Notes: a model not told the origin generated them from the letters alone. Shown: positions 11,959 to 35,004, counted from the first letter of the stretch. The stretch is DNA of 43,218 bases from a virus (IMGVR_UViG_3300045241_000059:1-43218), one strand, 5' to 3'. Translations and numbers: made by a program.

Positions 11959-14156
11959 AGCCGCATCTCCCCAGCGCGCGGCTCGGGCGGCGGCGGGATG
12001 ATCACGCCCGTGGGCTGTCGGCTCGGCTTCGCCGTATGGCGCAGCCTCGGACGCCAGGCCATCGCCAGATAGCGGAAGGCATCGCAGTTTCTGACGACTG
12101 CGCCGTTGGCCAGGGAAAAACACTTAGCGTCGGGGACAGTCAGGCACCAGACATCATCGTGATAGTCCAGTTCTGTTACGCCTGCGATGGTTGGCTGCCT
12201 TGCAGTTAACACCGCAATAGACTTGCGAATGGCCGCTCTTGCGGACCAGAGCCATGAATGCCTTTCCACACTCAGGGCATGCTTTTCGCTTACGTTTCCA
12301 CTTAGTCCATCCCTTTGATCGCTTCGCGTGCCGGCTATGCCAAAGACGACCAGCCTCGGATCGGTGCCATGCCGCCGCGGCGTCGCGGGCGGGTTGACCG
12401 AATGTTCGCGGCTTCCCCTTACTGGTTCGCGACAAGTGCTCCGATGCCTCAACGCATTCGAGGTTGACCAGGGCATTGTTGGCCGGATCGGCATCGCGGT
12501 GGTGAATGTGACACCCTTCGGGAATAGGGCCAAAAGCAAGAGCCCAAACATCGCGATGGAGCTTCTTGCCACCGCGCGAATAGTAGACATCGCTCGGCCA
12601 CAGGCGGTAAAGCCCGCCATCGAAATACTGCGTGAGAGGGTCAAGGACGATCGGATCGGCGTATTGGGTGTGAGGGACGCGGCGGATTGCCAGCCGTCGA
12701 CCGTCGCGAACAAATGATCCGGCGTGCATTTTACCGAAAGTCCGTCGGCGAACGTGACCTCCACAAGTGGGGCACTTCTGCGCGTGATCCTCGGGTTCTG
12801 ATACGGCTTCCAGCCACATGGCGTTAGGACCTCTCCGGTTGGGGGGAGGTCTTTTATCTGATGCATTCCGTAACGTGTCAAGACGGCGGTATCACCGGTG
12901 AAGCACGCGTGACTGGTCCAGTCGTGCAGCGCGCTCTGGCGGAAGCATTTTTTCTCGTCGTTCCATTCGCGGCGATAGAGCTCGAGCGCATTGAGGCCGC
13001 TCAGCTCGCAGCGCGGGTGGAAGACACACAGCGGCAGCGTTTGGCGCGCAGCGTTGATGCCGTCCTCGACGGTGGCGTGCCGCACCAGCACGGGGCGCAA
13101 GCCCATGCTCTGCATGGTCTCGACGCGGGTGCGGCCCGAGCCCCATTCCTTGATCTTGGCGTCGTGCGGAACGTAGTCGACGCCGTGACGCCAGCCATGC
13201 TCCTGCTGGCGCTGCTCGATCACATCGCGATAGTGCTCGAGCCCAACGCCAGAGGCACAGTAGCAGTCGAGGATCAGCAGTTGACCGTTGCCGGCTGGCG
13301 TGAACCACCAGATCGAGGTGTCGTCGGTCACCCCAAGATCCCAGGCGCGATGCACCTCTTGGCCAGGCGGCACCTGGAACTGATCGGTGACGCGGCTCTC
13401 TTCGCGTACCGTTAACATTTCATGCGCGTAATAGGCGCCGAGCACGGCGGCGTTCCAGGACACGAGATATTCGGACTCGAATTGCGCCCTGCCGACGTCA
13501 AATCCGTAAAGCGATTGGTACTCCTCGAGCGCTTCGTCGAGTTGCTCCTCGCTCAGCACGCCGGTGTCGCGCGCGGTGAGGGATTGGTAAAACCAGCCCT
13601 TGGTCTTCGCGGCGTACTGCGCCAGGTCGTAGGCGTGGTTCCTGCCTCTCGGCGTCGTAATAAAAATCGCGGTGCCATTGTTCTCCTGCAGCATCGGCCG
13701 GTGGTAGGCCCACGCCGACGGATTGGAGAGCGCGTACTCCGAGTAGGTGATCAACTTTGGCGACGCCCCGACGGTGCTGTCGTATTTGTCCGAGCCGATG
13801 ATCTGCCAGGTGCTCCCGTTCTTTGCGAATCGGATAAACATCTCGTTGTCGTTGGTGGTCTCGCGCAGCTCTGGCGGAAATGCTTCATCGATGCGCCGCT
13901 TGCCGGTATGCGGGTTGACCGCGCTCCAGATCGCTTTGCGCCCTTGTGCGTATTCGGGCAGGCAGTGCCACGCGTTAATTCCTGTGTGTCGATGCATCTC
14001 GACCGCGGCGAAATGCATGGCGACTTCGTCCTTGCCGGCGCGCCGGTGCCACACCGCCATCGCACGCTTGCCGCCGGCCATGAGGTAATCCCATAGGCCT
14101 TCCTGGTACGGGCGCTCCGTCCAGTTATGGGGCAGCTGTAGGCGCGGCCGATCCAT
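11955..14156 (-). CDS. terL: Terminase large subunit interrupted by an intein (733-aa precursor, 460 aa after removal)
   Basis: The N-terminus carries an ATPase motif (AVWHRRAGKDE). The nuclease-domain sequence HDWTSHA...CDAFRYLA is split by Hint splicing blocks. Confidence 0.9.
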   Translation of the reverse strand: MDRPRLQLPHNWTERPYQEGLWDYLMAGGKRAMAVWHRRAGKDEVAMHFAAVEMHRHTGINAWHCLPEYAQGRKAIWSAVNPHTGKRRIDEAFPPELRETTNDNEMFIRFAKNGSTWQIIGSDKYDSTVGASPKLITYSEYALSNPSAWAYHRPMLQENNGTAIFITTPRGRNHAYDLAQYAAKTKGWFYQSLTARDTGVLSEEQLDEALEEYQSLYGFDVGRAQFESEYLVSWNAAVLGAYYAHEMLTVREESRVTDQFQVPPGQEVHRAWDLGVTDDTSIWWFTPAGNGQLLILDCYCASGVGLEHYRDVIEQRQQEHGWRHGVDYVPHDAKIKEWGSGRTRVETMQSMGLRPVLVRHATVEDGINAARQTLPLCVFHPRCELSGLNALELYRREWNDEKKCFRQSALHDWTSHACFTGDTAVLTRYGMHQIKDLPPTGEVLTPCGWKPYQNPRITRRSAPLVEVTFADGLSVKCTPDHLFATVDGWQSAASLTPNTPIRSSLTLSRSISMAGFTACGRAMSTIRAVARSSIAMFGLLLLALFPKGVTFTTAMPIRPTMPWSTSNALRHRSTCREPVRGSREHSVNPPATPRRHGTDPRLVVFGIAGTRSDQRDGLSGNVSEKHALSVERHSWLWSARAAIRKSIAVLTARQPTIAGVTELDYHDDVWCLTVPDAKCFSLANGAVVRNCDAFRYLAMAWRPRLRHTAKPSRQPTGVIIPPPPEPRAGEMRL
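12087..12905 (-). mobile_element. Intein (273 codons) in terL
   Basis: Block A is CFTGDTAVL, with Cys1 at 12905-12903. Block B is VKCTPDHLF. Blocks F/G are DVWCLTVPD and NGAVVRN, with the terminal Asn at 12089-12087 and a +1 Cys. Confidence 0.85.
12154..12819 (-). CDS. HNH endonuclease ORF nested in the intein, in the -1 frame
   Basis: 221 aa with GGKKLHRDVWALAFGPIPEGCHIHHRDADPANNALVNLECV and CPECGKAF...YCGVNCKAANHRRR. It has its own ATG at 12819, and GGAGAGG (12836-12830) lies 10 nt upstream. Confidence 0.75.
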   Translation of the reverse strand: MWLEAVSEPEDHAQKCPTCGGHVRRRTFGKMHAGSFVRDGRRLAIRRVPHTQYADPIVLDPLTQYFDGGLYRLWPSDVYYSRGGKKLHRDVWALAFGPIPEGCHIHHRDADPANNALVNLECVEASEHLSRTSKGKPRTFGQPARDAAAAWHRSEAGRLWHSRHAKRSKGWTKWKRKRKACPECGKAFMALVRKSGHSQVYCGVNCKAANHRRRNRTGLSR

Positions 14157-19647: not shown

Positions 19648-19933
19648 TTGTGATCTCCTCGATTTTTGCGGTGAACGCGAGAATGCGAGCGCACAGCGCG
19701 CGCGCGCCGGCTGGGTGCATGTCGAGAAAGCGAGTCTGCTTGCCGATGCCAGGCTCAAGGCACAGCGTGACGATCGGAACGAGGTCGTCATCGACGCCGG
19801 CCGCCAAGCTGACGACGGTGCCCTCGTCGCCACTATCCGCAGAGGCAAACTCGAAGGTTTGGCTTTCGATGGCTTCGAGCTTTTCAGCGGTGACTTTGGC
19901 GGCGGAGGCCTGCAGCTGCTCCAGCAAGGTCAT
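19616..19933 (-). CDS. Hypothetical acidic protein
   Basis: 105-aa ORF with ATG start. It is the first gene downstream of the paired palindromic operators. Confidence 0.5.
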   Translation of the reverse strand: MTLLEQLQASAAKVTAEKLEAIESQTFEFASADSGDEGTVVSLAAGVDDDLVPIVTLCLEPGIGKQTRFLDMHPAGARALCARILAFTAKIEEITNVKPNPTGSP

Positions 19934-19969
19934 AGGGACATTCTCCTGGTGAGGGGACCAAGAGAATCT

Positions 19970-20008
19970 CTACAAGATGTAGACATACTAGGCAACTACA
20001 ATTTGTAG
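19970..20008. promoter_or_regulatory. Two palindromic operators, CTACAAGATGTAG and CTACAATTTGTAG
   Basis: Perfect 13-bp palindromes at 19970-19982 and 19996-20008, with centres 26 bp apart. Confidence 0.6.
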
Positions 20009-20227
20009 CTAGCAGGCGTCTTTTTTGTCGCTGGGTTCCACCTGCGCGAACAGCTTTTGCAGGTGGCGATAGCGCGTCATGATCGCGTCGATGCCGGCCC
20101 GCACGCACATCTGGCGTATGGCTTGGCGTGACGTGTCGATCTGCGCGGCGGCCTCGGCATGTGTGATTAATCCCTTGCGCATCAGTTCCAATGCGCGGAT
20201 TTGTGCGCTAGACTTCCTGGTCGTCAT
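20009..20227 (-). CDS. Small helix-turn-helix DNA-binding protein
   Basis: 72 aa, containing ITHAEAAAQIDTSRQAIRQMCVRAGID. Confidence 0.55.
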   Translation of the reverse strand: MTTRKSSAQIRALELMRKGLITHAEAAAQIDTSRQAIRQMCVRAGIDAIMTRYRHLQKLFAQVEPSDKKDAC

Positions 20228-20282
20228 TGTGTTGCCTCTGGGTTGTTAAGCCTTTCGGGCTCAGATGCGCGGGCATTGACGC

Positions 20283-20319
20283 GGGGCGGTCCTTTGCGGG
20301 GGCCGCCCCACCCTTTTTT
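20283..20319 (+). terminator. Intrinsic-terminator-like hairpin plus T6, oriented on the plus strand
   Basis: GGGGCGG (20283-20289) pairs with CCGCCCC (20303-20309), followed by ACCCTTTTTT. In the minus sense the loop contains CCGCAAA. Confidence 0.4.
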
Positions 20320-20326
20320 CGACGCG

Positions 20327-20620
20327 CTAGGCCACGCCATCCATTGGGCCATAGCGCTGCTCGTACTCTTTGCAGAAGGCCGCAAGCTCAGACGCAAGCG
20401 ACTGACCTATTTGCTCAAGGGCTGACGGGTCCGCTTCCTTAGTCTCGTACACCCCGTCCTTACCCACCTCGTAAAGCCCCATCAGGATGACGAACATGTG
20501 CCGCGCGCCCATCATGAAGGCCACGCGAAGATTGTCCGGCCCCGTCGGTAATGCGCGGGATGCCTCCCACATATCCCATCCCCTCTCGATCAGGTCGTGA
20601 TCGTTCAGGGCGTCAGTCAT
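20327..20620 (-). CDS. Hypothetical protein
   Basis: 97-aa ORF with an ATGA overlap to the upstream gene. Confidence 0.55.
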   Translation of the reverse strand: MTDALNDHDLIERGWDMWEASRALPTGPDNLRVAFMMGARHMFVILMGLYEVGKDGVYETKEADPSALEQIGQSLASELAAFCKEYEQRYGPMDGVA

Positions 20621-20847
20621 CGCGCTTCCTCCAGCTTGTCGATGCGGCGCGCTATCGACGCGACCTGATTTGCGAGCGCGTGTACTTGGGCCGCGATCAC
20701 TTTTACCTCGGCCCCGATCAGGGCCACGCTCGCCTCGACCTTGGTCATGCGGGCGCCGAGCACGAGCATCTCGTCGCGCATTGCGCCTTGCTCGGAGAGC
20801 ACGCGCTCGAGCTGCTTGGCGATAAATTCCAGGGTGATTTCTACCAT
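20617..20847 (-). CDS. Hypothetical coiled-coil protein
   Basis: 76-aa ORF preceded by a GGAAAGGAACC ribosome-binding site and the CCCGCAAAC motif. Confidence 0.55.
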   Translation of the reverse strand: MVEITLEFIAKQLERVLSEQGAMRDEMLVLGARMTKVEASVALIGAEVKVIAAQVHALANQVASIARRIDKLEEAR

Positions 20848-20886
20848 CGTGGTTCCTTTCCGTTTGCGGGCCAGTCTACGTTATGT

Positions 20887-21090
20887 TTACCGCCGCGGCA
20901 CCCCTGGCGGCAACGGCAACCGCTGGAACCCCAGCTCGTCAAACACCTCGTCGATGCGCTGTTGCGGGGTTTTCTCGCCAGACGTTGCGGCGGTGGTGGG
21001 TGACCTGTTGAGGCCCATAACCATGCCGTGAACGAGACCTATGATGCCCGCCGCGATGGCGGCGATAGCGATCAGTGATGGTATTCGCAT
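20887..21090 (-). CDS. Small membrane protein
   Basis: MRIPSLIAIAAIAAGIIGLVHGMVMGL... Start at ATG 21090 after GAAAGGAACC. Confidence 0.55.
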   Translation of the reverse strand: MRIPSLIAIAAIAAGIIGLVHGMVMGLNRSPTTAATSGEKTPQQRIDEVFDELGFQRLPLPPGVPRR

Positions 21091-21110
21091 GCTCGGTTCC
21101 TTTCGGTTTA

Positions 21111-21127
21111 GCCCGTTTGCGGCGGGC
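21111..21127 (-). promoter_or_regulatory. Hairpin with CCGCAAA loop
   Basis: In the minus sense, GCCCG-CCGCAAA-CGGGC, about 20 nt upstream of the ribosome-binding site of the 21090 gene. Confidence 0.5.
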
Positions 21128-21138
21128 ATGGTTGGGAC

Positions 21139-21167
21139 TTGCCACGTTGTGTAGAAAGGCGCATTAT
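21139..21167 (+). promoter_or_regulatory. Sigma70-like promoter candidate (TTGCCA-17 nt-CATTAT)
   Basis: The hexamers have 17-nt spacing. The spacer contains CGTTGTGTAGAAAGG, which resembles the half-site CGTTATGTAGAAGG in the immunity region. Confidence 0.35.
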
Positions 21168-21241
21168 GTGGATAGCAGTTTGTGCGGGACCCCCCTCTAC
21201 AGCATCCGCACAAAGGAAGCGTCCTTCGCACAGGGACGCAT

Positions 21242-21279
21242 GGGGCGCAGCCGGAATTTCGCCGCGTCGGCTGCGCCCC
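21242..21279 (+). promoter_or_regulatory. 12-bp perfect GC-rich hairpin in the leader of the 21300 gene
   Basis: GGGGCGCAGCCG (21242-21253) pairs with CGGCTGCGCCCC (21268-21279), 20 nt before the ATG. Confidence 0.45.
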
Positions 21280-21299
21280 TACCGTTTCATGAGGCAAAC

Positions 21300-21497
21300 A
21301 TGATCAGCGGCAAGCAGCGGCTGCAAAACCTGCGAACCAAGGTCAACATCATCGCGCGCCGCAACCTGCGGGACTTCTTGGCCGGCCGTCTGGGCGTCAT
21401 GCCGTGCTCCGGTGATCAGCTTGACGACGAGGTTGCTAAAGAGTTCGAGCGTCTGGAGTTACATGAGCATCAATTGCCGCCTTCGCCTGGTCGCTGA
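21300..21497 (+). CDS. Small hypothetical protein on the opposite strand to the early operon
   Basis: 65 aa. ATG follows GAGG with a 7-nt spacer. The 3' end overlaps the convergent HD-like gene. Confidence 0.45.
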   Translation: MISGKQRLQNLRTKVNIIARRNLRDFLAGRLGVMPCSGDQLDDEVAKEFERLELHEHQLPPSPGR

Positions 21498-21936
21498 TGT
21501 CGCTGTCGCGCAGCTTAGCAAGCCAGCGGCTTGTGCTGCCTTGTTCGAGCAGGTTTGCCGCCTCGATCTCGCGCAGGATGCGCCGCACTGGCTGATCCTC
21601 TGCCACTATAAGCCACTCGGCTGGAGATTTTATTTCCTCGAAAAGAGATCTTGGCCGGTCGATCGTGCAGAACAGAAATGCCGGATATTCTGCTTGGTGG
21701 CCAATCAGCCTCTGGATTGTAGCGCGATCCGTCAGTGGCCAAGCCTTGTGATGGAAATGCACGGTCCCATAGATCGAATGAAACAGGCCGGCATTGCAAA
21801 TGTCCTCGCTGTTGCCCCACCGTTGCAACAGGTCGTGGGTCCCGACGAGGTGATCAAACAAGCTCCGCCCGCTATGGCGCGTCTGGTCCGCCTTCGCTTG
21901 CGCGATCAGAAACTGTGTCAGCTTCGACTCGATCAT
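21436..21936 (-). CDS. HD-like / DUF-type putative phosphohydrolase
   Basis: Contains HSGRSLFDHLVGTHDLLQRWG...NAGLFHSIYGT. 166 aa. Confidence 0.45.
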   Translation of the reverse strand: MIESKLTQFLIAQAKADQTRHSGRSLFDHLVGTHDLLQRWGNSEDICNAGLFHSIYGTVHFHHKAWPLTDRATIQRLIGHQAEYPAFLFCTIDRPRSLFEEIKSPAEWLIVAEDQPVRRILREIEAANLLEQGSTSRWLAKLRDSDISDQAKAAIDAHVTPDARTL

Positions 21937-22573
21937 GTTTGGCGATCCGAGTTTTGAACATCAATGTAATCCGCAGCTCCGGACACGTCCGGCTCACACC
22001 GCGCGCAACATGCGGCATGTTGCCAGGGAAAACCAATAGCCGATTGGGGCGCGGGTAGATGGTCGCGACAATGTCGTCGCGGGCATCATTGAAAATCAGC
22101 GTTTCGCCGCCCCAATTCGGGTCCCATGCCGTATGCGGGTAATAGATCGCGGTGTAGTGTCCTTCGCGCTTGGCGTCGGTGTGGATGGTCCCCTCCCCGC
22201 CAAAGCAGGACCCGTTCGCGTAACAGCGCAGCAATTCGTGGCCGCGATAGAATTCCATGCGCCGCAGCCACTGCCAGAACCGGAATAAAACCGGCGAGGT
22301 TTTTTCCAGCTCGCCGGCACATTCGTAGGGCTTGTCGTTCGCGCCGCTGCGATGGCCAGCAAAGTGCATATGCCAAAACGCGAACTGATCGGTTTTCGGC
22401 GAGGACTTCCAGCCAAACGTCCAGCGGCCATGGCGCAAGTAGTTCCGCACCGAAGCATGCTGATACTCGTCGAGCAGCCCATCGATCACGACAACGCCAG
22501 GCGCCAGCGTGCGGATCGACCTTGCGGGCGCTTCCGCCGCTGGCACGTCAGGTGCATCAATCGTTGTCGTCAC
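21872..22573 (-). CDS. 2OG-Fe(II) oxygenase (prolyl-4-hydroxylase-like)
   Basis: HxD in GTIHTDAK, distal His in GNMPHVARG, Arg in RITLMF, and GGETLIF. Confidence 0.65.
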   Translation of the reverse strand: MTTTIDAPDVPAAEAPARSIRTLAPGVVVIDGLLDEYQHASVRNYLRHGRWTFGWKSSPKTDQFAFWHMHFAGHRSGANDKPYECAGELEKTSPVLFRFWQWLRRMEFYRGHELLRCYANGSCFGGEGTIHTDAKREGHYTAIYYPHTAWDPNWGGETLIFNDARDDIVATIYPRPNRLLVFPGNMPHVARGVSRTCPELRITLMFKTRIAKHDRVEADTVSDRASEGGPDAP

Positions 22574-22860
22574 GGCTTGCCCTCGAGTTCGCGCAGGCGA
22601 GAATTAACACCGCTCATCCAGCGATGGATAGCGGAAAATTCCGCGACCAGACTCGATAGCGTCGTATCCACGCGCATGGCCATTGCTGAGGTAACGTGCA
22701 GATCATCGCGCAAGATCCGCACGTCGCCACGCAAAGTTTGCACGTCGCGCTGTAGTATTTCAATCGACTTGCCCAATAACGGGATGCCGTCGAGAAATGG
22801 TTGTTGGGCGTCGAGCTTGTGATTGATTGCCGCCAGCGCGGCCGCAAGTTCAGGGTCCAT
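22570..22860 (-). CDS. Hypothetical coiled-coil protein
   Basis: 96-aa ORF with an ATGA-type overlap to the next gene. Confidence 0.5.
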   Translation of the reverse strand: MDPELAAALAAINHKLDAQQPFLDGIPLLGKSIEILQRDVQTLRGDVRILRDDLHVTSAMAMRVDTTLSSLVAEFSAIHRWMSGVNSRLRELEGKP

Positions 22861-22910
22861 TGGTCCATCCTCCGGTCAGGTGTCGAATATACCACATACC
22901 GTTGCCGCCG

Positions 22911-23015
22911 CTACCACAGGGCCAAGAGCGCGAGCGCGATGCCGAGCACGATCACGCCCTCGCCCAGGTAGAGCAGCGCCAGCACGGCGTACTCGGCTTT
23001 TTGGTTGCGCGTCAT
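22911..23015 (-). CDS. Small single-pass membrane peptide (34 aa)
   Basis: MTRNQKAEYAVLALLYLGEGVIVLGIALALLALW. ATGA overlap with the upstream stop. Confidence 0.4.
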   Translation of the reverse strand: MTRNQKAEYAVLALLYLGEGVIVLGIALALLALW

Positions 23016-23239
23016 TGGCGATTTGGTTCGCTGTTATCGCGCCAAGATGGACGCGGCGAGCGCCGCCAACGATGGTCGCGGCTTTCCATCAGCTGATTGA
23101 CTGTGTCGCACGCGGTATGGAATAGGTTGGCCTCGTCTTTCGACAGGTCGCCCATATCGGTACTCGCCATGCGGTTCATCTGGCGTGCGAGTGCGGCTAG
23201 CTTGCTATCGATCATCATTGCGTTCCATCCTTTCATCAC
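23012..23239 (-). CDS. Hypothetical protein
   Basis: 75-aa ORF. Confidence 0.45.
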   Translation of the reverse strand: MMKGWNAMMIDSKLAALARQMNRMASTDMGDLSKDEANLFHTACDTVNQLMESRDHRWRRSPRPSWRDNSEPNRQ

Positions 23240-23393
23240 GATAGCGCTGGTAGCGTTCGTCCGGATCCCGGTACAGCCCGCATGGGCAATCGGGATCGTC
23301 GCAGCCGCGCGGCGTCCTGACGGCGTTGTATCCCCCGCAGCGCGGGCATTCGTCGTCGCGCGGATCAGTGGTTTTCCAGTGGTCGTAGGTCAT
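23205..23393 (-). CDS. Small Cys-rich zinc-binding-like protein
   Basis: Contains ECPRCGGYN...DPDCPCG. Confidence 0.45.
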   Translation of the reverse strand: MTYDHWKTTDPRDDECPRCGGYNAVRTPRGCDDPDCPCGLYRDPDERYQRYRDERMERNDDR

Positions 23394-23671
23394 GGGGTAT
23401 TCCTCCTATGCATCTTCCGCCAAGGGCTCGGCATCATAATTCGCGAAACCGCCTGGCGAATCGTTACCGTGTCGGGGCGCTTGAAATCAGCGTCGTCAAA
23501 CGTCGCCCCATTGGTCTTGATTTCGGCTGTTGTGTTGTCGTTAAAGGTCAAATACAGGGTGCCCCATTTGACGTGGTAATCCTTCACGTCGTCCCATTCT
23601 TTCCCCTCCGGCAGGTCAAAAGTGGTGTCGGTTGTGAGCGTGTACGTTGTCGTTATCGACAGAGTATTCAT
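23390..23671 (-). CDS. Hypothetical protein
   Basis: Starts MNTLSITTTYTLTTDTTFDLPEGKEWDD at ATG 23671, after CCTGAAAGGACAC. Confidence 0.55.
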   Translation of the reverse strand: MNTLSITTTYTLTTDTTFDLPEGKEWDDVKDYHVKWGTLYLTFNDNTTAEIKTNGATFDDADFKRPDTVTIRQAVSRIMMPSPWRKMHRRNTP

Positions 23672-23697
23672 GGCTGAGTGTCCTTTCAGGTTGCGGG

Positions 23698-23865
23698 TTA
23701 GCTTGCGAAAAAGCGCAGTGTTGTGACGCACCAAACGCCCTCTATGCGTTGTATGCGCGGGCGGTCGCTATTGTCGAATTCGCCCATGAGGCGCATGTAG
23801 TCCAGACCCATTCGCGCCAGCATGCGCGATGCAAAGCGCGAGTAGACGATACGGCGCGTGATCAT
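23698..23865 (-). CDS. Small hypothetical protein (55 aa)
   Basis: Starts MITRRIVYSRFASRMLARMGLDYMRLMGEF. ATG follows GGAAAGGGAATAAGCC. Confidence 0.4.
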   Translation of the reverse strand: MITRRIVYSRFASRMLARMGLDYMRLMGEFDNSDRPRIQRIEGVWCVTTLRFFAS

Positions 23866-23962
23866 GGCTTATTCCCTTTCCGCCGTTATGGTCCTGATAA
23901 CGCGCTCGCCCATAGGGACAAGCACGCGGCTTTGTAGCCACGCGCGCGCGGCGTACAGTTGC

Positions 23963-24274
23963 TCACTGTGTTCTGTGAAGGCGCATGCGCGCACGCCGCC
24001 GTGAATGATCGGACCCTCGGGGGTGCCGTACCATCCGATCTCCCCCAAGGGCTTTAGCCTGATTGAACGTGAGGAACCGCATGGTTGGCCAATTGTGCTT
24101 TTGCGTGGCCATCCAAAGCAGCACTACGTTGCAGCCGGAATAGGGGCGGCCGGTACCGGCATTGTGCGGATGATTGCAGCCTGGCATAGCCGACCAAGGT
24201 TTAACCCAAGGCACGGCGCCGGTTTCTAGTTCAGCAACAATGCGGGCAGTGACTTCGCTGTAAATATCGCGCAT
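23963..24274 (-). CDS. ArdC N-terminal-domain-like (ssDNA-binding, DUF1738-type) protein, apparently truncated
   Basis: MRDIYSEVTARIVAELETGAVPWVKPWS...NAGTGRPYSGCNVVLLW...FLTFNQAKALGG, followed by an unrelated R-rich tail. Confidence 0.6.
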   Translation of the reverse strand: MRDIYSEVTARIVAELETGAVPWVKPWSAMPGCNHPHNAGTGRPYSGCNVVLLWMATQKHNWPTMRFLTFNQAKALGGDRMVRHPRGSDHSRRRARMRLHRTQ

Positions 24275-24297
24275 GGGGATAGCCTTCCTGGGTTTAA

Positions 24298-24341
24298 GCG
24301 CCGTTTGCGGCGGCGCGTGCGACGTTGTTTGCGGCAACGTC
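24298..24341 (-). promoter_or_regulatory. Two tandem hairpins, each with a CCGCAAA loop
   Basis: In the minus sense, GACGTTG-CCGCAAA-CAACGTC (24341-24321) and GCGCCG-CCGCAAA-CGGCGC (24316-24298). Confidence 0.55.
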
Positions 24342-24395
24342 TGAGCGGCATGGTGCCACTATGAGGCGGCGCGCATGGCGTCGCCCTTAGTGTCA

Positions 24396-24596
24396 TCATC
24401 CTCCGAGTTCACCGAACACTAACCAGTGGCGATATATGTTTTGCAGTTCGTCATACCGGCGAACGTCCATCGCCGTTCCAGCTGGCAGCTTTGCCACCAT
24501 GCTAAACAGCATCGCGATCGAGTAGCTGTGACGGCGGAAGGCCTCGGCCGCAAGAATGGACCATTGCCGCTTGTCGTAGGATGTAGGAGTGATCAT
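24396..24596 (-). CDS. Hypothetical protein
   Basis: Starts MITPTSYDKRQWSILAAEAFRRHSYSIAML at ATG 24596, after GAAAGGCAAAGCT. Confidence 0.5.
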   Translation of the reverse strand: MITPTSYDKRQWSILAAEAFRRHSYSIAMLFSMVAKLPAGTAMDVRRYDELQNIYRHWLVFGELGG

Positions 24597-24617
24597 AGCT
24601 TTGCCTTTCATGGTTAT

Positions 24618-24638
24618 GGGCACGTTTGCGGCGTGCCC
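24618..24638 (-). promoter_or_regulatory. Hairpin with CCGCAAA loop
   Basis: In the minus sense, GGGCACG-CCGCAAA-CGTGCCC. Confidence 0.55.
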
Positions 24639-24647
24639 GATTGTGAA

Positions 24648-24869
24648 CTATGCCGCACGTGCGGCCCGCATCTCATCGACTTGTGCAGCTGCCGCATCGA
24701 TAGCGGCCCGCGTCTGCGCTGCAAGCAAGCGCTTGAGCGCGATATTTTCGCGGGCGATGCACGGGAAATGGCGCTCGTTATGCGACCATGCGTCCGACAG
24801 TGCGACTTGCACGTCCAGCCATTGCGCCGTTGTCAGGGTGACGGTCAGGGGTTGATCAAATAGTTTCAT
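24648..24869 (-). CDS. Hypothetical protein
   Basis: Starts MKLFDQPLTVTLTTAQWLDVQVALSDAW at ATG 24869, after CCCGAAAGGCAAATCCA. Confidence 0.5.
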   Translation of the reverse strand: MKLFDQPLTVTLTTAQWLDVQVALSDAWSHNERHFPCIARENIALKRLLAAQTRAAIDAAAAQVDEMRAARAA

Positions 24870-24951
24870 TGGATTTGCCTTTCGGGTTTTGCGGGATTGG
24901 ACATCATCAGGCACGGCCCTACCGTGCGACGGGCTTGCGCCCGTTTCGTCC

Positions 24952-25284
24952 TTAGCGATTGAACAGCCGCACGATGCGACTTCGCAATGCTGCGGTGACG
25001 TGATCGGGGATATGCAGCGACCGTTGCTCTTCCGTCCCCGTCTCGAAATATTCGCGCGTCCCGTCATTCCAACGATAGAACGTGAGCCATCGGACATCAT
25101 CCGGACAGCCGGTACTATCGGGCTCGCAAGCGCCCGCCCATGATGGCTCGCGGTATTCAAGGCCTAGCCGGATTGCGTCCGTTAGGCTGCAATCCTCGAT
25201 CACATAGCCACGGTCGTCGGTATCGCCGGCCTCGACATCATCGTGCGACCAGCGTTCGAAGGTGACGGAAAAATTTTTGCTCAT
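24952..25284 (-). CDS. Hypothetical acidic protein
   Basis: 110-aa ORF. ATG follows CCTGAAAGGCAAAGGCA. Confidence 0.55.
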   Translation of the reverse strand: MSKNFSVTFERWSHDDVEAGDTDDRGYVIEDCSLTDAIRLGLEYREPSWAGACEPDSTGCPDDVRWLTFYRWNDGTREYFETGTEEQRSLHIPDHVTAALRSRIVRLFNR

Positions 25285-25374
25285 TGCCTTTGCCTTTCAG
25301 GTTTGCGGCGGATTGCCATTCATGCCCCCCCCTCGCGAGGGGCATGGGCTGCAATCAAATGCCTCCGTTTCGTT

Positions 25375-25569
25375 CTAGACTGGTGTGCAGTCGTCCAAGT
25401 AAACGCGAATTACCTTGCCGCTTTTGTCGAGCTTGACGCGCGCGACGGTAAGTCCGCGCGGGTCTTTGGGATCAAGAAACCGCTTGGGCTTGCTGTACCC
25501 AATGATTTCGCCGTAGCGATCGCCCATCATCCAACGGTCGGTGTAGGCAGGAATTTGCACGCGGGTCAT
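25375..25569 (-). CDS. Hypothetical protein, first gene of the leftward early operon
   Basis: 64-aa ORF. ATG follows CCTGAAAGGACACACC. Confidence 0.55.
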   Translation of the reverse strand: MTRVQIPAYTDRWMMGDRYGEIIGYSKPKRFLDPKDPRGLTVARVKLDKSGKVIRVYLDDCTPV

Positions 25570-26189
25570 GGTGTGTCCTTTCAGGTTGCGGGATTGTCAG
25601 TCTGAGGTGAAATCAGAGCCGGCGCCGCATGGGCGCCAGGTCTGATATCGCCATTGCCTGGGGCGGATGTTTCGGCGACGGGACAGGCATTTGCGCCTGG
25701 CGTTCGATCCGTCGGGCCACCGCATTGGCGCGGCATTGCGGCTAGCCCTTCCGCGCACATGCGCGACTGCTAATCCGGTCCCGAAACCCGCGTTGCCAGT
25801 TCACGTTAGAGGCTGCCTGCGGGTTAACGTGACTACATTAAGCAGACGCCTACACCATTGTCAACCGGAAACGTCATCAACTATCACTTGTCCAAAAAAT
25901 AGTTGGCGGCCACTTTCCTAACTGATTTTGCTGCGCTGCAACCGCCGAATCTGTTGTGATAACACGGTTCGAAATGGCCGTAAGTCTTTGATCCTGCTTA
26001 TGTCGAGTGACATCTTGACAAGTGGTTTAGTCCTAGCCTCTACTCGCGCGCGGCTCCCGCCCTTGCCGTCCCCCCATTCCCAGGTTTGCTACGAATTGCA
26101 CCTAGGCCAGGTGATCATGGCGTTGGGAACCGCTATGTCGGTTTGGATATAGCGCTGCGTGTTCCCGTTATGTCCTTGCCATCCGTGTT

Positions 26190-26470
26190 AACAGGGATAA
26201 CATGCCTAGGATATCAGTCCTAGCAAGCGGGCGCCCCCATAAGACCCGAAAGGAACTCCCCGCAGGGGGGGGGTAGGGGGGGGTGAAGTTATCCGAACGA
26301 CAGCCAAGGGGCCCCAGCACCACCCAGGAAACCGGCGGCAGAAATTCTGGGCACACCAGCCCCATCCTCTGCGGGGTAAGATCTAGGGAGCACGGGGCAG
26401 CCAAGGGGCGGAGACCCTCGGACGGCCAGTAGCGGGGGTCGGCAAAGAGGAGAGGTCTTGTCGGAAGCTG
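26190..26470. ncRNA. Candidate structured GC-rich non-coding element (class unknown)
   Basis: No credible ORF. GGATAAC (26195-26201) can pair with GTTATCC (26288-26294), enclosing a CTAGGA/TCCTAG hairpin (26206-26223), a CC-GAAA-GG mini-hairpin and C-run/G-run pairings. The 12-mer CAGCCAAGGGGC occurs at 26301 and 26398. Confidence 0.25.
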
Positions 26471-26474
26471 TGCC

Positions 26475-26663
26475 ATGAGAACGGAACACAAGCCAACCGA
26501 GCCTGATCCCGACCTGGTGCTGCTGGCAAGCCTGCTCTTTGCGGCAGAGCCGGAGGGGGACGCCTCGGGGGCTAAGGCGGCGATCGGACGGCTGGCACTC
26601 AAGCTGTACGTGTTGGAGCAGTGTAGCAAGGGGCGTGACAAGCCGCCAAAACCTACTGCATAG
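26475..26663 (+). CDS. Small hypothetical protein
   Basis: 62-aa ORF with G/C-rich third codon positions and GGAAG 9 nt upstream. Confidence 0.45.
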   Translation: MRTEHKPTEPDPDLVLLASLLFAAEPEGDASGAKAAIGRLALKLYVLEQCSKGRDKPPKPTA

Positions 26664-26687
26664 TGTAGTAAGGACCGGAGGTCACGG

Positions 26688-29373: not shown

Positions 29374-29726
29374 CAACCTCTCGGCACGATCCCACGCCCG
29401 TGTCGAGGCCCCTCCCGACGCTCCGGACGGTCCAACCTCGTCGGGAGGGGTTCTCACCAGGCTACGGCGAGTGCCCGTGCTGCTATGGCGAGCGCGTGCT
29501 CTACGCCTATGACCTCGACCAGCCGGCAACCCCGCAGCAGCATCCGTGCGGGCACTGCCAGGGCAGCGGCCAAGTGCCGATTGACAACCACATATCCGCA
29601 GATGCGACACCGATGCGGAGTGCGTCCGCAATGGTCTACGCAGTCCGCACGGTCCTCAAAATCCAGAAAAGCCGCAGCAAAACCAAATCCGCAAAACCCG
29701 CAAAACGACAGGGACGCAAACGATGA
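29370..29726 (+). CDS. Zinc-finger protein (CxxC ... CxxCxGxG) with a basic tail
   Basis: Contains CPCCYGERV...CGHCQGSGQV. ATGA overlap with the upstream gene. Confidence 0.55.
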   Translation: MTTSRHDPTPVSRPLPTLRTVQPRREGFSPGYGECPCCYGERVLYAYDLDQPATPQQHPCGHCQGSGQVPIDNHISADATPMRSASAMVYAVRTVLKIQKSRSKTKSAKPAKRQGRKR

Positions 29727-31692: not shown

Positions 31693-31920
31693 TCATGGCT
31701 TGTCCTTGGGTTTTCCGAGCTTCTCGAGACCCCGCCGCGCCGCCTGCTCGATCTCAACCACCGCACCTCGACCGGTGACCAACTCCTCGAGTTCCAGCGC
31801 GTCGAACTCGGCCAAGAGTCCAGGCGACCTCATCAGCTTTTCGAACGCGCTGCGGGTCGCATGGCAGTGCTCGATCAGCTCCAGCAGCTCGCGCACGGCT
31901 TTTTTCTGTTTCGCATCCAT
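31693..31920 (-). CDS. Hypothetical protein
   Basis: 75-aa ORF with ATG start, 10 nt downstream of a palindromic operator. Confidence 0.5.
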   Translation of the reverse strand: MDAKQKKAVRELLELIEHCHATRSAFEKLMRSPGLLAEFDALELEELVTGRGAVVEIEQAARRGLEKLGKPKDKP

Positions 31921-33371: not shown

Positions 33372-33800
33372 TCACCCCGATCGCGACTGTTGAATTTTTC
33401 GGCGCTCGTCCATGCGGGTGGCGAGGTCGCCGATCGTGCGCAGCGCCGCGCGGCCGCGCAGCACGCCCCAGTCCTCGAGGATGGCGACCGCCTGGTCGAT
33501 GCTGTCACAGACTGCAGTGATTGCACCGGCGCGCTCGAGCGCCACCAGCGCCTCGCGTTGCGTGGGCCCTGGCTTGCGACCGGGCGCCTTGAGCTCCATC
33601 GCGAACACGCGCGCGTTCATGATGATGAAAATGTCGGGGACGCCGGCGCGCACGCCGAGACCGTACAGGATCGCGGCCTCGATCTTTGAGCGCTGGCCGC
33701 CATTCGGGACATGGAAGAAGAAGATGTTGGGCACGCCACGCGCGTGCAGGTGGGCGATCACGCCGCGCTGGATTTTGTCCTCGGGGCGCTCGCGCCTCAT
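33372..33800 (-). CDS. VRR-NUC domain nuclease
   Basis: Contains KIQRGVIAHLHARGVPNIFFFHVPNGGQRS...GVRAGVPDIFII...AMELKAPG...PTQREALVALERAG. Start at ATG 33800. Confidence 0.8.
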   Translation of the reverse strand: MRRERPEDKIQRGVIAHLHARGVPNIFFFHVPNGGQRSKIEAAILYGLGVRAGVPDIFIIMNARVFAMELKAPGRKPGPTQREALVALERAGAITAVCDSIDQAVAILEDWGVLRGRAALRTIGDLATRMDERRKIQQSRSG

Positions 33801-34258
33801 GGCCGCCACCGTTCCCAGGCCACGCCGGCGTGCTTGGCGCAATAGGGCTTGCCGTCGATCTGGGTCAGCCCGCAGTAGCGGAATTCTGGGGTCTTTGGAT
33901 CGCCGAACGGCCACCGGCAATGATGCGGCTGTAAGTCGGCCAACGTCACAGTGCCGATCTTGGGTTCGATGATCGGCGTCGGCGGTGGTAGTGGGCGCCG
34001 TGAGATCTTCTCGCGTAGGCGCGCGTCCATCACGGCGGGTGATGCGCGGCTGGGGGATGGCTTGCGGTTGCGCTTGCGCTTGCCGACGAGCCGACCCCAT
34101 TGGGAATTCCAAGGGATCTTGTGGCGATGGATTTTACCGATGACGGCGTTGCGGGTACGGCCGGTCTCCGCCGCGATCTCGCTGGCGGTCAGTCCCTGCC
34201 TGGCGAACTCCGTGAGGCTTGCGAGTAACTGTTGGTTCCACTGTTGTGGCCACGCCAT
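33797..34258 (-). CDS. gcrA: GcrA-like cell-cycle regulator homologue
   Basis: N-terminal LTEFARQGLTASEIAAETGRTRNAVIGKIHR and C-terminal HHCRWPFGDPKTPEFRYCG...GKPYCAKHAGVAW match the two conserved GcrA modules. Confidence 0.8.
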   Translation of the reverse strand: MAWPQQWNQQLLASLTEFARQGLTASEIAAETGRTRNAVIGKIHRHKIPWNSQWGRLVGKRKRNRKPSPSRASPAVMDARLREKISRRPLPPPTPIIEPKIGTVTLADLQPHHCRWPFGDPKTPEFRYCGLTQIDGKPYCAKHAGVAWERWRP

Positions 34259-34743: not shown

Positions 34744-35004
34744 TCACGCCCGCTTCTTGCGTTGGCCGGCCGGCCGGCGCACGCGCAGCGTGGTTTTTGA
34801 GGCGAGCCTCGCCAGCAGCTCGTAAGTGATCCCCGCGTAACCGCGCTCGTCGGCGGCCTTGACCACAGCCAGCCAATGGTACGGCGGGATCGAGTCACGC
34901 GCGTACATCGCGTGGGCATGCTTGCGGGGGATGCCGACATCCTTGGCAAAGGTGCCGAAGCTGGGCCAGCGGGTGATGATACTTGCGTAGTTGGTGATGG
35001 GCAT
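34744..35004 (-). CDS. Cro/YdaS-like DNA-binding protein
   Basis: Contains FAKDVGIPRKHAHAMYARDSIPPYHWLAVVKAADERG. It is divergent from the CI-like gene. Confidence 0.55.
   Translation of the reverse strand: MPITNYASIITRWPSFGTFAKDVGIPRKHAHAMYARDSIPPYHWLAVVKAADERGYAGITYELLARLASKTTLRVRRPAGQRKKRA

Follow-up and report, generated by a model that had tools for sequence, protein, structure and literature searches.

A short motif, CCGCAA(A), stands in gene sense at a fixed distance upstream of ribosome-binding sites in the leftward early operon of a viral DNA (the window, the whole analyzed stretch of 43,218 nt), and it is either left unpaired or presented as the invariant loop of hairpins whose stems covary. 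Our leading reading, still tentative, is that the motif may be an RNA-level recognition element, read by a factor, which heads independently translated accessory and anti-defence cassettes and doubles as a joint for recombination.

Strand and spacer restriction of the motif

An earlier note on this DNA had listed ten heptamers in gene sense, and all ten were recovered on the gene-sense strand only. One further copy was found.

20293, 20863, 21116, 24304, 24328, 24625, 24888 and 25302, minus strand: copies of CCGCAAA
23691 and 25586, minus strand: copies of CCCGCAA
19645-19671, minus strand: eleventh element, CCGCAAA at 19665-19671, inside the 3' end of g18

The eleventh copy lies 18 nt 5' of the AUG (19647) of a YqaJ-type exonuclease and is conserved in relatives. 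The whole window contained 23 copies of CCGCAAA, compared with 9.5 ± 3.3 in shuffled sequences, and none of 100 shuffles reached 23. The hexamer CCGCAA was then counted on the sense strand of a curated gene map of 19648-25700, and the claimed confinement to the spacers of early genes was borne out: the spacers (938 nt) hold 10 occurrences, the coding sequence (5115 nt) holds 4, and the antisense spacers have none (Poisson P = 1.6e-8, Fisher P = 1.4e-6). The hexamer was absent from about 25 other spacers of the window, and three further early-operon spacers have good SD sequences and are motif-free. Two plus-strand copies (29689 and 29698) were rejected as coincidental; they sit in a coding Lys/Ala-rich tail.

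The full form of the motif is G-CCGCAAA-C, and it was predicted to be unpaired in every context (probability 0.60-0.95). In relatives it heads non-homologous genes. No complementary RNA partner was found within the operon.

Spacing to ribosome-binding sites

The unpaired copies and their surroundings are as follows.

25567-25592, minus strand: unpaired copy 1, CCCGCAA (25586-25592), then CCT, the SD GAAAGG (25577-25582) and the g1 AUG (25567-25569)
25282-25374, minus strand: g1-g2 spacer with ACGAAACGG (25365-25373), a bipartite hairpin (25311-25356), the motif CCGCAAA (25302-25308), an SD (25293-25298) and an AUG (25282-25284)
24867-24898, minus strand: head of g3 with the hammerhead 3' tail AAUCC, then the motif CCCGCAAAA (24887-24895), an SD (24878-24883) and the g3 AUG (24867-24869)
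23669-23697, minus strand: unpaired CCCGCAA (23691-23697), then CCTGAAAGG and the g7 AUG (23671)
20845-20870, minus strand: unpaired motif CCCGCAAA (20863-20870), then CGGAAAGG and the g15 AUG (20847)

The unpaired arrangement is CCGCAA(A)-CC(Y)-GAAAGG-N7-8-AUG, in which the motif abuts a uniform ribosome-binding site. The SD-AUG distance was 7-8 nt at 42 of 46 real sites, and the distance from the motif end to the AUG was 16-19 nt for most unpaired copies and 23-26 nt for five. The placement just 5' of ribosome-binding sites was therefore as described before, with the spacing fixed. A longer module beginning with CAATCC had also been proposed upstream of several starts; its motif-SD-AUG order held, but the spacer before 23671 has TAACCCGCAA and not CAATCC. 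The unpaired motif of g3 is dispensable, being missing from four lineages that show GUCCAAUCC-GAAAGG, and CCGAUAC replaces it in lineage L282.

Heptaloop hairpins

Four hairpins with the heptamer as an exact 7-nt loop (G-CCGCAAA-C) were confirmed as claimed.

24618-24638, minus strand: H1, GGGCACG-CCGCAAA-CGTGCCC (covariance model 36.8 bits; fold z = -3.3)
24321-24341, minus strand: H2, GACGTTG-CCGCAAA-CAACGTC (covariance model 34.5 bits)
24298-24316, minus strand: H3, GCGCCG-CCGCAAA-CGGCGC (covariance model 22.8 bits)
21111-21127, minus strand: H5, GCCCG-CCGCAAA-CGGGC (covariance model 31.5 bits)

H1 and H4 begin 6-9 nt downstream of stop codons (H1 9 nt past that of g3). The motif ends 29-30 nt before the AUG in H1 and H3 (29 nt to g4 and 30 nt to g5, respectively) and 25-28 nt before it in H5, which lies 26 nt 5' of the g14 AUG (21090) in the window. 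The stems span 5-9 bp.

In related phage contigs, the stems change by compensatory or G.U substitutions while the loop is constant, in agreement with the description of an invariant loop on variable stems. Orthologous H2 hairpins show four stem variants, comprising two compensatory changes and two G.U intermediates; H1 has a G.U variant in L293, and the H5 stem is extended to 8 bp in L289, while in L011 it contains a G.U pair. Across 15 distinct aligned sequences, paired cells made up 92%, compared with 63% in shuffled alignments and 25-44% with slid partners, and both sides had changed in 6 of 7 pairs. A.C mismatches were absent from non-recombinant stems, in which six G.U wobbles occurred, indicating that pairing is kept on the sense strand only. 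The loop and closing pair were invariant in 45/45 columns, whereas 35/110 stem and flank columns varied, and the loop was intact in every lineage possessing the locus. Matches of the covariance model were restricted to family loci and always fell on the operon-sense strand; no Rfam match to the hairpins was found. The comparative set consisted of about eight closely related metagenome lineages or contigs, and because of this shallow depth the covariation rests on few independent events. H2/H3 and H5 have only modest z-scores for stability. Taken together, these data support an element acting as a nucleic-acid signal with defined structure and strand specificity.

The heptamer in a 13-nt loop at 20283-20309, previously counted as a fifth hairpin copy, reached only 11.9 bits (E = 0.69) with the covariance model of the hairpin family.

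20283-20319, plus strand: hairpin GGGGCGG...CCGCCCC and T-run, intrinsic terminator for antisense transcription

Read on the plus strand, the 12 pairs of 20283-20309 and the ACCCTTTTTT behind them make up a canonical intrinsic terminator, and the fold energy of 20283-20319 is -24.5 kcal/mol on this strand versus -22.9 kcal/mol on the minus strand. The hairpin is better read as an opposite-strand terminator; CCGCAAA (20293-20299) sits in the minus-strand loop by chance and is thus a doubtful member of the motif set.

A hammerhead ribozyme in the g2-g3 spacer

Descriptor search and a covariance model revealed a ribozyme that is absent from the earlier account.

24899-24951, minus strand: type II hammerhead ribozyme, g2-g3 spacer

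Its 5' half consists of GGAC-GAAA, stem III (CGGGC GCAA GCCCG) and U-C up to the cleavage point, which is predicted between 24928 and 24927, and its 3' half of stem I (GCACGG UAGGG CCGUGC), CUGAUGA, an extra U and GUCC. The purpose-built covariance model scored 83 bits (E = 6e-22); 16/16 pairs were paired in all aligned sequences, 7 of them with compensatory change, and the minimum-energy fold was the three-way junction (z = -3.4). With Rfam Hammerhead_II, the orthologue in L294 scored 30.3 bits and a paralogue there 25.3 bits, both below the gathering score of 37. The pseudoknot from loop I to the 3' tail has only 2-5 bp. The extra U of the window copy lies between A9 and G10.1, and a surplus residue at the same position is known from a naturally occurring, active hammerhead (PMC3705267). 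The ribozyme is located directly past the g2 stop codon and 30 nt 5' of the next AUG, between same-strand genes. From this fold we infer that it would be active and hence that RNA would be processed within the spacer series.

As had been claimed, ACGAAACGG occurs after the stop in two spacers, with exactly two copies (24941-24949 and 25365-25373), but the copy at 24941-24949 is the GAAA core of the hammerhead. The g2-g3 spacer has both ACGAAACGG and CAATCC because the hammerhead core and 3' tail supply them. The copy at 25365-25373 is probably a hammerhead relic from which the CUGAUGA core is missing.

Operon context and cassette junctions

Upstream of g1, two further features were recognized.

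25836-25864, minus strand: putative early promoter, TTGACA (25859-25864), 17-nt spacer, TTAATG (25836-25841)
25612-25836, minus strand: structured leader RNA of ~220 nt, from the promoter to the first cistron (RNAalifold)

The promoter was read from the sequence, and a consensus scan made no call there; its -35 hexamer and spacing are conserved in six relatives. The leader, analyzed with RNAalifold on 6 lineages, has 62 pairs, 11 with compensatory changes, and no match in Rfam. The leftward early operon is presumably transcribed as a single RNA. Its layout is like that of lambda pL, with small genes followed by the phage's own YqaJ exonuclease and RecT and then the integrase. Among anti-defence genes, ArdC-N is found in the window operon, and those of relatives contain ArdA, ArdC-N, GP88, Tad2-like, Sequestin and HicB genes; the ArdA cassette is headed by a heptaloop hairpin, not by a hammerhead. 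No factor that reads the motif was found; the sole family-wide small basic protein, g6 (55 aa, 10 Arg), is conserved in the family; it had no match in Pfam and PHROG, and its predicted model had no significant structural neighbor. A search for an N-like protein found none, and boxA was not found in the window. The motif spacers have no detected promoter, their hairpins are without a U-tract, and no sense-strand intrinsic terminators were found in the spacers. A different palindrome, CTACA-N-TGTAG, marks promoter-like spacers. The host group of the element is a small set of uncultivated temperate phages.

Hybrid hairpins in relatives combine the H2 5' arm with the H3 3' arm (L292) and an H1 flank with the H3 3' arm (L298), which places the cassette junctions in the loop, and the earlier suggestion of repeated boundary elements at cassette edges agrees with these junctions. 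In addition, g4 is an indel cassette between H1 and H2, and homology breakpoints are enriched ~3-fold in the modules (17 observed versus 5.4 expected).

Proposed function and its alternatives

According to our tentative model, CCGCAA(A) would be read as single-stranded RNA and would delimit, on the 5' side, the translation-initiation region of accessory genes, which include many with anti-defence roles. It would be displayed in two ways, unpaired beside the ribosome-binding site or as the heptaloop of a 5-9 bp hairpin at a fixed upstream distance, and the hammerhead would cut the polycistronic RNA directly past the g2 stop codon. The elements may then act as interchangeable 'cassette heads' that free each cistron from the sequence preceding it or shield it against that sequence. 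A trans-acting factor of phage or host, either an RNA-binding protein or an endoribonuclease, would read the heptamer and determine how the early cassettes are translated or what becomes of their mRNA. As one short sequence heads many cassettes, it could double as a joint for their recombinational exchange. Each shuffled gene thus seems to bring its own built-in expression "head". The invariant loop could also stem from gene conversion between copies instead of a binding factor.

Gene conversion would also keep the loop uniform in an unlikely alternative, in which the octamer with its palindromic flanks is a crossover point without RNA function, used for short-homology recombination via the phage YqaJ exonuclease/RecT or for template switching at single-stranded DNA hairpins. 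The loop junctions of the hybrid hairpins, the g4 cassette bounded by H1/H2, the breakpoint enrichment, the phage recombination genes and the PeSL precedent (PMC2839356) are consistent with it. However, homologous recombination requires identity rather than hairpins, and the stems are kept by compensatory change yet differ between copies; the fixed SD/AUG distance and the sense-strand restriction would be superfluous, and G.T pairs solely on the sense strand would demand one specific DNA strand as the substrate. Somewhat less likely again is a purely structural role in insulation or ribosome standby, where hairpins would block pairing of upstream RNA with the SD and protect the 3' ends of upstream cistrons, and the C/A-rich octamer would be contacted directly by the 30S subunit (e.g., S1) without a dedicated factor. 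The motif directly precedes a uniform SD with constant spacing, both are predicted to be accessible, H1 and H4 closely follow stop codons, and the arrangement is like that of RiboJ, a synthetic ribozyme-plus-hairpin insulator. Against this, an invariant 9-nt loop plus closing pair on five different stems exceeds any structural need, and the three motif-free spacers possess good SDs. From the known 16S 3' terminus it can be reasoned that its colinear pairing with the motif is ruled out on geometric grounds, given that the motif is 5' of the SD.

The earlier note had proposed a protein-binding RNA, for example boxB/nut or translational control; the structured, RNA-like signal near the ribosome-binding site stands, but boxB/nut membership does not. 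Antitermination, in which a phage N-like protein would bind the loops and render RNA polymerase terminator-resistant, is very improbable: fixed-loop hairpins within a lambda pL-like operon and the conserved Arg-rich g6 would suit it, but the 7-nt loop is not GNRA-like, boxA and an N-like protein are lacking, and 4-6 copies per operon, half of them unpaired, are tied to SDs rather than to terminators or to one promoter-proximal site. Moreover, five motif copies precede g6, the sixth gene of the operon, which is without N-like features, and the conserved leader is a better candidate for operon-level control. Marginally less probable are anti-defence decoys, that is, hairpins acting as sponges by resembling either an anticodon arm or, in Racr-like fashion, a CRISPR repeat. 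RNA anti-CRISPRs are intergenic neighbors of anti-defence genes and in some cases share their operon (PMC10651486), and such genes are present here and in relatives; a 7-nt loop on a stem of at least 5 bp has, as read from the sequence, anticodon-arm geometry, and the loop CCGCAAA departs from that of tRNA-Cys(GCA), YUGCAAA, at position 33 alone. That position, however, is U in all elongator tRNAs and C in this loop; the stems vary between copies, whereas repeat mimics preserve the whole repeat, Rfam CRISPR-repeat families gave no match (best E = 9.6, on the wrong strand), and the tight SD spacing and the unpaired half of the copies are left unexplained. We consider least probable of all a double-stranded DNA site for an elongation-blocking repressor like the stoperators of mycobacteriophage L5, even though a short, asymmetric intergenic site in one orientation relative to transcription is the stoperator pattern (PMC3203893). 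The constant part measures only 8-9 bp, palindromic flanks that covary serve nothing at a double-stranded monomer site, the early promoter/operator region of the window is without the motif, and the promoter-like spacers bear the CTACA-N-TGTAG palindrome instead.

Relation to known systems

The nearest analogues of the proposed recognition element appear to be mycobacteriophage SAS, T4 PeSLs and prophage hammerhead arrays. SAS/ESAS are start-associated sequences of Cluster K mycobacteriophages (PMC3203893), and their function was still open in 2025 (PMC12699233). Like the motif, SAS is a short, asymmetric repeat in one orientation, located few nt 5' of the starts of non-structural genes only; both head different gene families, are clade-specific and absent from host-like background, and have an added inverted repeat at about half of the sites. 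The sequences are dissimilar, and SAS (GGGATAGGAGCCC) includes the SD, whereas the phage motif is 5' of it. The ESAS arms are conserved in sequence without covariation, for which reason DNA binding was proposed (PMC3203893); the motif stems covary and the loop alone is fixed, which points to RNA.

The PeSLs of T4-like phages are likewise small regulatory cassettes, repeated between early genes that are not essential in a hyperplastic region, where recombination between copies shuffles or deletes genes (PMC2839356, PMC4122927). A PeSL, however, is a sigma-70 promoter plus terminator stem-loop of ~50-60 bp, features not found in the motif spacers, and the conserved part of the motif is an 8-9 nt loop tied to a ribosome-binding site. 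The lambda nut site (boxA plus boxB bound by N) is also a small fixed-loop, variable-stem hairpin early in a pL-like operon; it differs in its GNRA-like pentaloop, its boxA and its N protein, and the motif has many copies, each beside an SD and half of them unpaired. We think that the motif may work like the translational operators of CsrA (GGA), T4 RegA and RNA-phage coat proteins, which are short motifs, in a loop or unpaired, near several SDs. Their sequences are unrelated to the motif, which overlaps neither SD nor AUG, and no homologue of CsrA, RegA or coat protein was detected.

Prophage hammerheads flank single genes, with ardA directly 3' in some cases (Perreault et al. 2011, PMC3088659). 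The ribozyme at 24899-24951 has the same type II topology and full core, and its operon, in this family, also houses anti-restriction genes, ArdA among them. Unlike those prophage loci, most junctions in this operon bear the heptaloop element and no ribozyme.

The early operon and its relatives

The window, about 43 kb at 61% G+C, has the appearance of a complete genome of a temperate phage. An extended early operon, with the same gene layout as the lambda pL operon, runs along its minus strand, and the principal genes and sites are as follows (plus-strand coordinates).

25836-25864, minus strand: promoter-like site at the start of the long early operon
25569 to 19616, minus strand: about 18 small genes of this operon (g1 to g18, promoter-proximal first)
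23963-24274, minus strand: g5, truncated ArdC N-domain, 103 aa (family match)
19647-18859, minus strand: YqaJ-type exonuclease, operon continuation
18019-16844, minus strand: RecT, operon continuation
16094-14919, minus strand: ordinary phage-type integrase, the sole integrase, operon continuation
33797-34258, minus strand: homologue of the cell-cycle regulator GcrA (E = 5e-29), followed by a VRR-NUC nuclease

GcrA is not known outside Alphaproteobacteria, and its homologue therefore points to an alphaproteobacterial host. The search for tRNA genes gave none.

Relatives were collected via RecT, g3 and g6, which yielded about eight lineages, all of them virome or metagenome sequences (including IMG/VR 3300047408_000130 and 3300047388_000325 and the loci L282, L289, L292, L293, L294, L298 and L301). 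The RecT search returned chiefly short contigs from metagenomes, and no match, hence no host genome, from genome contigs. No similar phage was detected in the GenBank phage collection by megablast or blastn, and tblastn with RecT against GenBank phages retrieved unrelated phages only (best identity ≤40%), so that these searches supplied neither a cultured relative nor a host. At the position of g5, a 296-aa ArdC-N plus metalloprotease gene is present in L282 and a GP88-family gene in lineages A and B. The relatives' copies of the early operon also contain ArdA, full-length ArdC, GP88 and HicB-like genes, and Tad2-like and Sequestin genes were found among the adjoining divergently oriented genes. 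The ArdC-type, ArdA, GP88 and HicB-like content indicates that the early operon is an array of accessory and anti-defence cassettes.

A motif tied to the start codons of the early genes

The earlier note had located ten copies of a CCGCAA(A) motif in the spacers of this operon, and all ten coordinates were correct. On the sense strand of 19648-25700, CCGCAA occurred 10 times in 938 nt of spacer versus 4 times in 5115 nt of coding sequence (Poisson P = 1.6e-8), and it was absent from the same spacers on the opposite strand, which confirmed both the confinement to spacers and the single orientation. The motif was present in 9 of about 12 spacers in this region and in none of about 25 elsewhere in the genome. 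With an eleventh copy, the total is 10-11 copies across 6 kb. Two plus-strand copies, at 29689 and 29698, were rejected as coding sequence of a Lys/Ala-rich tail. The hairpins and other elements of the operon are listed here.

24899-24951, minus strand: complete type II hammerhead ribozyme (RF02276 type), directly 3' of the g2 stop codon and 30 nt before the next start codon
24618-24638, minus strand: hairpin H1
24321-24341, minus strand: hairpin H2
24298-24316, minus strand: hairpin H3
21111-21127, minus strand: hairpin H5
20283-20319, plus strand: intrinsic terminator between g16 and g17, opposing the early operon, 100% conserved in relatives
19665-19671, minus strand: eleventh motif copy, within the preceding gene, 18 nt 5' of the exonuclease AUG

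The full module reads CCGCAA(A)-CC(Y)-GAAAGG-(CAA)N-AUG. The 16S tail CCUCCUUUCU would be the pairing partner of its uniform SD, GAAAGG. Spacing was measured on 46 distinct real motif-to-start cases across the family, a 47th regex match (window 32447) being left out as coding. The distance from SD to AUG was 7-8 nt in 42 of the 46 cases (range 6-9), and the motif lay 2-31 nt 5' of the SD. From the motif end to AUG, the unpaired copies mostly showed 16-19 nt, with five at 23-26 nt; the corresponding distances were 29-30 nt for H1 and H3, 25-28 nt for H5 and 44 nt for H4, a further hairpin of the family. The distance from the upstream stop codon was free (about 1 to >90 nt), and the motif was predicted to be unpaired in every context with a probability of 0.60-0.95. 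Taken together, the fixed spacing to the start, the free spacing to the stop and the unpaired state indicate that the element is part of the downstream translation-initiation region.

In all of the roughly eight relatives the motif recurs in the corresponding operon and on the corresponding strand, heading among others genes that are non-homologous to those of the window. In phages with RecT at 52-60% identity the motif was not found, and a k-mer count gave no obvious analogous repeat. The pattern CCGCAA-N0-2-CCTGAAAGGCAA matched genome contigs only by chance in coding sequence (e.g., R-N-L-K-G-N). Among viral contigs, the module pattern was found in the known relative only, and a tandem-loop pattern matched at least 119 loci, with hairpins in the known relative alone.

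Covarying stems around an invariant loop

Four hairpins with exact CCGCAAA heptaloops (H1, H2, H3 and H5) are formed as the earlier note had described, and the 7-nt loop recurs in 22 of 22 distinct hairpins across the family. The element G-CCGCAAA-C is common to fifteen distinct hairpin sequences with different stems. In a 7-pair model of these, 92% of cells were paired, versus 63% after shuffling and 25-44% with slid partners, and 6 of the 7 pairs showed changes on both sides. Because the fifteen sequences were picked for having stems, the orthologous comparisons carry more weight. The H2 stem is GACGTTG/CAACGTC in the window, GATGCTG/CAGCATC in A, GATGTTG/CAGCATC in B and GATGCTG/CAGTATC in L282, a set in which two compensatory changes and the G·U intermediate of each can be recognised. 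The H5 stem extends from five pairs to eight in B, and H1, H4 and H5 each show a single G·U pair in one lineage. The non-recombinant stems contained six G·U pairs and no A·C mismatch (binomial P of about 0.016, by hand arithmetic), which indicates that pairing is kept on the gene-sense strand only. The loop and its closing pair were invariant in 45 of 45 orthologous columns, whereas 35 of 110 stem and flank columns varied, and the loop was intact in every lineage having a given locus. A covariance-model search, as had been proposed, retrieved exactly the four hairpins in the window and, elsewhere, family loci only, always on the operon strand.

A fifth copy, previously read as part of a larger loop at 20283-20309, is better taken as an antisense terminator than as a family member. 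It scored 11.9 bits (E = 0.69) in the hairpin model, and the plus strand there forms a canonical 12-pair terminator with a T-run, which implies an antisense or convergent transcript across g17. No GC hairpin followed by a U-run was found at H1, H2, H3 or H5 on the minus strand. Rfam gave no hit for the whole window at gathering scores, and only noise for the hairpins and the leader when the region was searched in E-value mode. The heptaloop and the linear start-associated motif belong to no Rfam family.

Two more hairpins precede H2 in the g4-g5 spacer (24343-24395, minus strand). The loop of one of them is CCAUGCG and its stem covaries (GGCGACG/CGCCGCC in the window versus GGCCAUG/CAUGGCC in B), and in L294 a hammerhead takes the matching position.

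A hammerhead ribozyme in the g2-g3 spacer

In the segment 24899-24951, which the earlier note had not recognised as a hammerhead, CGAAAC is followed by a hairpin that has a GNRA cap and ends in GUC; next come another hairpin, CUGAUGA and a strand that complements the initial four bases. The hammerhead explains part of the repeated ACGAAACGG that had been noticed after stop codons: the second copy is the hammerhead core, and the first (25365-25373), which has no CUGAUGA partner, is probably a hammerhead relic. Likewise, CAATCC, previously taken as part of the conserved module, is in this spacer the 3' tail of the hammerhead.

The core was compared with C3-U4-G5-A6-N7-G8-A9, G12-A13-A14 and an N-U-H cleavage triplet; CUGAUGA, GAAA and GUC were invariant in seven aligned sequences, with GUA in a paralogue. 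Stems I and III are loop-closed and stem II is open, and the core-adjoining pairs A15.1-U16.1, 10.1-11.1 and 1.1-2.1 are formed. All 16 pairs are formed in all seven sequences, 7 of them with compensatory changes spanning all three helices, and the three-way junction is the minimum-energy fold. Cleavage is predicted between 24928 and 24927. Type II hammerheads have a pseudoknot of at least 4 bp between loop I and the 3' tail in most, not all, members (PMC3088659); as counted by hand, only 2-3 bp could form with AAUCC(C) here and up to 5 bp with CCUGA in L289. In the window and in lineage B/L289, A9 and G10.1 are separated by an extra U. A natural hammerhead known to be active likewise carries an additional residue at precisely that site, where U raised activity (PMC3705267), and the compensatory changes between the window and B indicate that the extra-U variant is still under selection.

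Orthologues were found in five further lineages. L294 additionally carries a paralogue (2073-2130) whose helices are entirely different and whose cleavage site is GUA; it precedes H2 by 15 nt, giving the arrangement ribozyme-hairpin-hairpin-SD in which the hairpins are H2 and H3. With Rfam Hammerhead_II, the two copies in L294 reached 30.3 bits (E = 4.6e-4) and 25.3 bits (E = 9.3e-3), both below the 37-bit gathering score, and the window copy was not reported in the Rfam search. Our own model gave the window copy 83 bits, this being one of its seven training sequences, and detected no second copy in the window. The g1-g2 spacer was rejected as a second hammerhead, having no CUGAUGA core and no covariance-model match. 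From sequence and pairing, 24899-24951 is a new member of the known hammerhead family, and its self-cleavage is predicted.

In four lineages the g3 initiation region lacks the motif and a canonical hammerhead abuts the SD, and in L282 the motif is replaced by CCGAUAC; both cases speak against the unpaired form being essential. Hammerhead and motif occur together in two lineages only, both with the extra-U ribozyme, a co-occurrence of little weight since it may be a single evolutionary event. Perreault et al. described prophage hammerheads flanking single genes, noted ardA directly downstream of hammerheads, and proposed processing of long phage transcripts (PMC3088659).

Cassette junctions within the loop

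The operon is mosaic among relatives, g4 for instance being present or absent between H1 and H2. In L292 (5418-5444), before an ArdA-like gene, the 5' arm and flank of H2 are joined via one CCGCAAA to the 3' arm of H3, and the hybrid hairpin is poorly paired. In L298 (9445-9475), before the same ArdA-like gene, the H1 flank is joined to the 3' arm of H3. The two hybrids place cassette junctions in the loop, and several homology blocks start exactly at the motif, which bears out the suggestion that the repeats are boundary elements of cassette shuffling. Breakpoints were about threefold enriched in the modules (17 observed versus 5.4 expected), a figure confounded by gene boundaries as such.

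Comparison with known systems and interpretation

The boxB/nut resemblance suggested earlier was not supported, the defining features of nut-like antitermination being absent. The CCGCAAA heptaloop of all 22 hairpins is not a GNRA-like pentaloop on a 5-bp stem; GCTCTTWA, sought as the boxA (CGCUCUUA-like) that lies 5' of boxB, had 0 matches in the window; and instead of one promoter-proximal site with an N protein there are 10-11 copies over 6 kb and no N-like Pfam or PHROG annotation. Stoperator-like DNA sites fail in the same way. The L5-type stoperator is a 13-bp double-stranded site that also serves, in the same asymmetric form, as operator at the early promoter; here no motif copy was found in the promoter region 25836-25900, and the constant part is just 8-9 nt with covarying flanks. 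Decoys mimicking CRISPR repeats or anticodons are unsupported: an RNA anti-CRISPR is expected to match a known CRISPR repeat at 90% identity or more for the greater part of its length, the best match of Rfam CRISPR-DR families to the hairpins had E = 9.6 on the opposite strand, and the stems differ between copies. Integron attC sites have RYYYAAC/GTTRRRY cores in an imperfect palindrome of 57-141 bp and act with IntI; CGCAAAC and GTTTGCG are off this consensus, the hairpins are 17-25 nt, and no IntI was found, the integrase being of phage type only.

In anatomy the motif is closest to the SAS/ESAS of mycobacteriophages, and in evolutionary behaviour to the PeSLs of T4. The SAS of Cluster K mycobacteriophages is a 13-bp GGGATAGGAGCCC with the SD inside it, 3-7 bp from the start codon, whereas the present motif has another sequence and lies 5' of the SD, and is thus an analogue rather than a member. 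A PeSL combines a strong sigma-70-like promoter with a terminator stem-loop; the motif spacers showed no promoter-like site and the four hairpins no sense terminator. The invariant loop, the covarying stems and the position 5' of the SD set the motif apart from both.

The data fit best with an RNA-level "cassette head", in view of the sense-strand structure, the invariant exposed loop, the fixed RBS spacing, the limitation to independently translated cassettes, the ribozyme in series and the loop junctions. At the 5' edge of the RBS, a trans-acting factor would recognise the octamer as a single strand, the same transcript may also be cut by the predicted ribozyme, and the repeated motif would double as recombination joint. 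A more specific version, offered tentatively and with considerable doubt, is that the G-CCGCAAA-C hairpin represents a new intercistronic RNA class, functionally interchangeable with the hammerhead: a site of processing or insulation that depends on a protein, either a dedicated endoribonuclease or one that binds the loop. The element would supply every anti-defence cassette that is shuffled with an mRNA 5' end and RBS that are autonomous and do not depend on context, with the loop as exchange point. If so, RiboJ and Csy4 insulators, which are synthetic, would have a natural counterpart in it. A joint that serves recombination alone, possibly via single-stranded DNA hairpins and kept uniform through gene conversion, is a less likely explanation. 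Insulation by structure alone, or a standby site for ribosomes, is more doubtful still.

The location of a ribozyme 30 nt before a start codon, with heptaloops in sibling spacers, suggests a shared task, such as the production of single-gene mRNAs or insulated ribosome-binding sites. The function of the mycobacteriophage SAS has stayed open for 15 years; here the covarying stems, the G·U pairs confined to the sense strand and the fixed loop favour RNA over DNA, which makes the question of start-associated motifs directly testable. Junctions exactly in the loop may mean that one element serves both expression and exchange, which bears on how accessory and anti-defence arrays remain expressible under shuffling. 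Should there be a factor specific for the loop, it and the hairpin would together make a compact orthogonal part for engineering operons in Alphaproteobacteria.

Candidate readers of the motif

None of the operon's sense transcripts contained a 7-mer complementary to the motif. A hairpin at 26530-26550 with a complementary loop was rejected as a trans-acting RNA, since the region in which it sits (ORF 26475-26663) had no detectable equivalent in relatives. Base pairing with the 3' end of 16S rRNA was ruled out on geometry, reasoned from the known 16S sequence. The g6 product matched no Pfam or PHROG family, had homologues only at ≥84% identity, and gave an AlphaFold model (pLDDT 76, beta-alpha-beta-beta) with no significant PDB neighbour; g6 as the motif-reading factor is only a guess. 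The factor may be a translational regulator, an endoribonuclease or the ribosome itself, and the analysis brought up no supported candidate.

Other features of the window

A 109-aa ORF (21139-21497, plus strand), antisense within the early operon, has its own sigma-70-like promoter (21139-21167) and no family match, and looks like a moron insertion. The 733-aa protein at 11955-14156 (minus strand) matched an intein splicing domain at E = 6e-5, which falls short of the Pfam cut-off. The long untranslated region upstream of the plus-strand genes includes an unusual G-rich tract, CCCCGCAGGGGGGGGGTAGGGGGGGGTG (26250-26285, plus strand). The first gene is separated from the early promoter by a leader RNA of about 220 nt (25612-25836, minus strand). 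It is highly conserved and structured, with 62 predicted pairs, 11 of them with compensatory changes across six lineages; Rfam has no match for it, and it may regulate in cis, e.g., as an attenuator or put-like element. Palindromes of the form CTACA-N3-6-TGTAG were found in promoter-like spacers (about 19950-20005, 26645-26665, 31700-31720 and 34790-34830), one of them adjoining TTGACA, and they probably constitute the phage repressor operator set.
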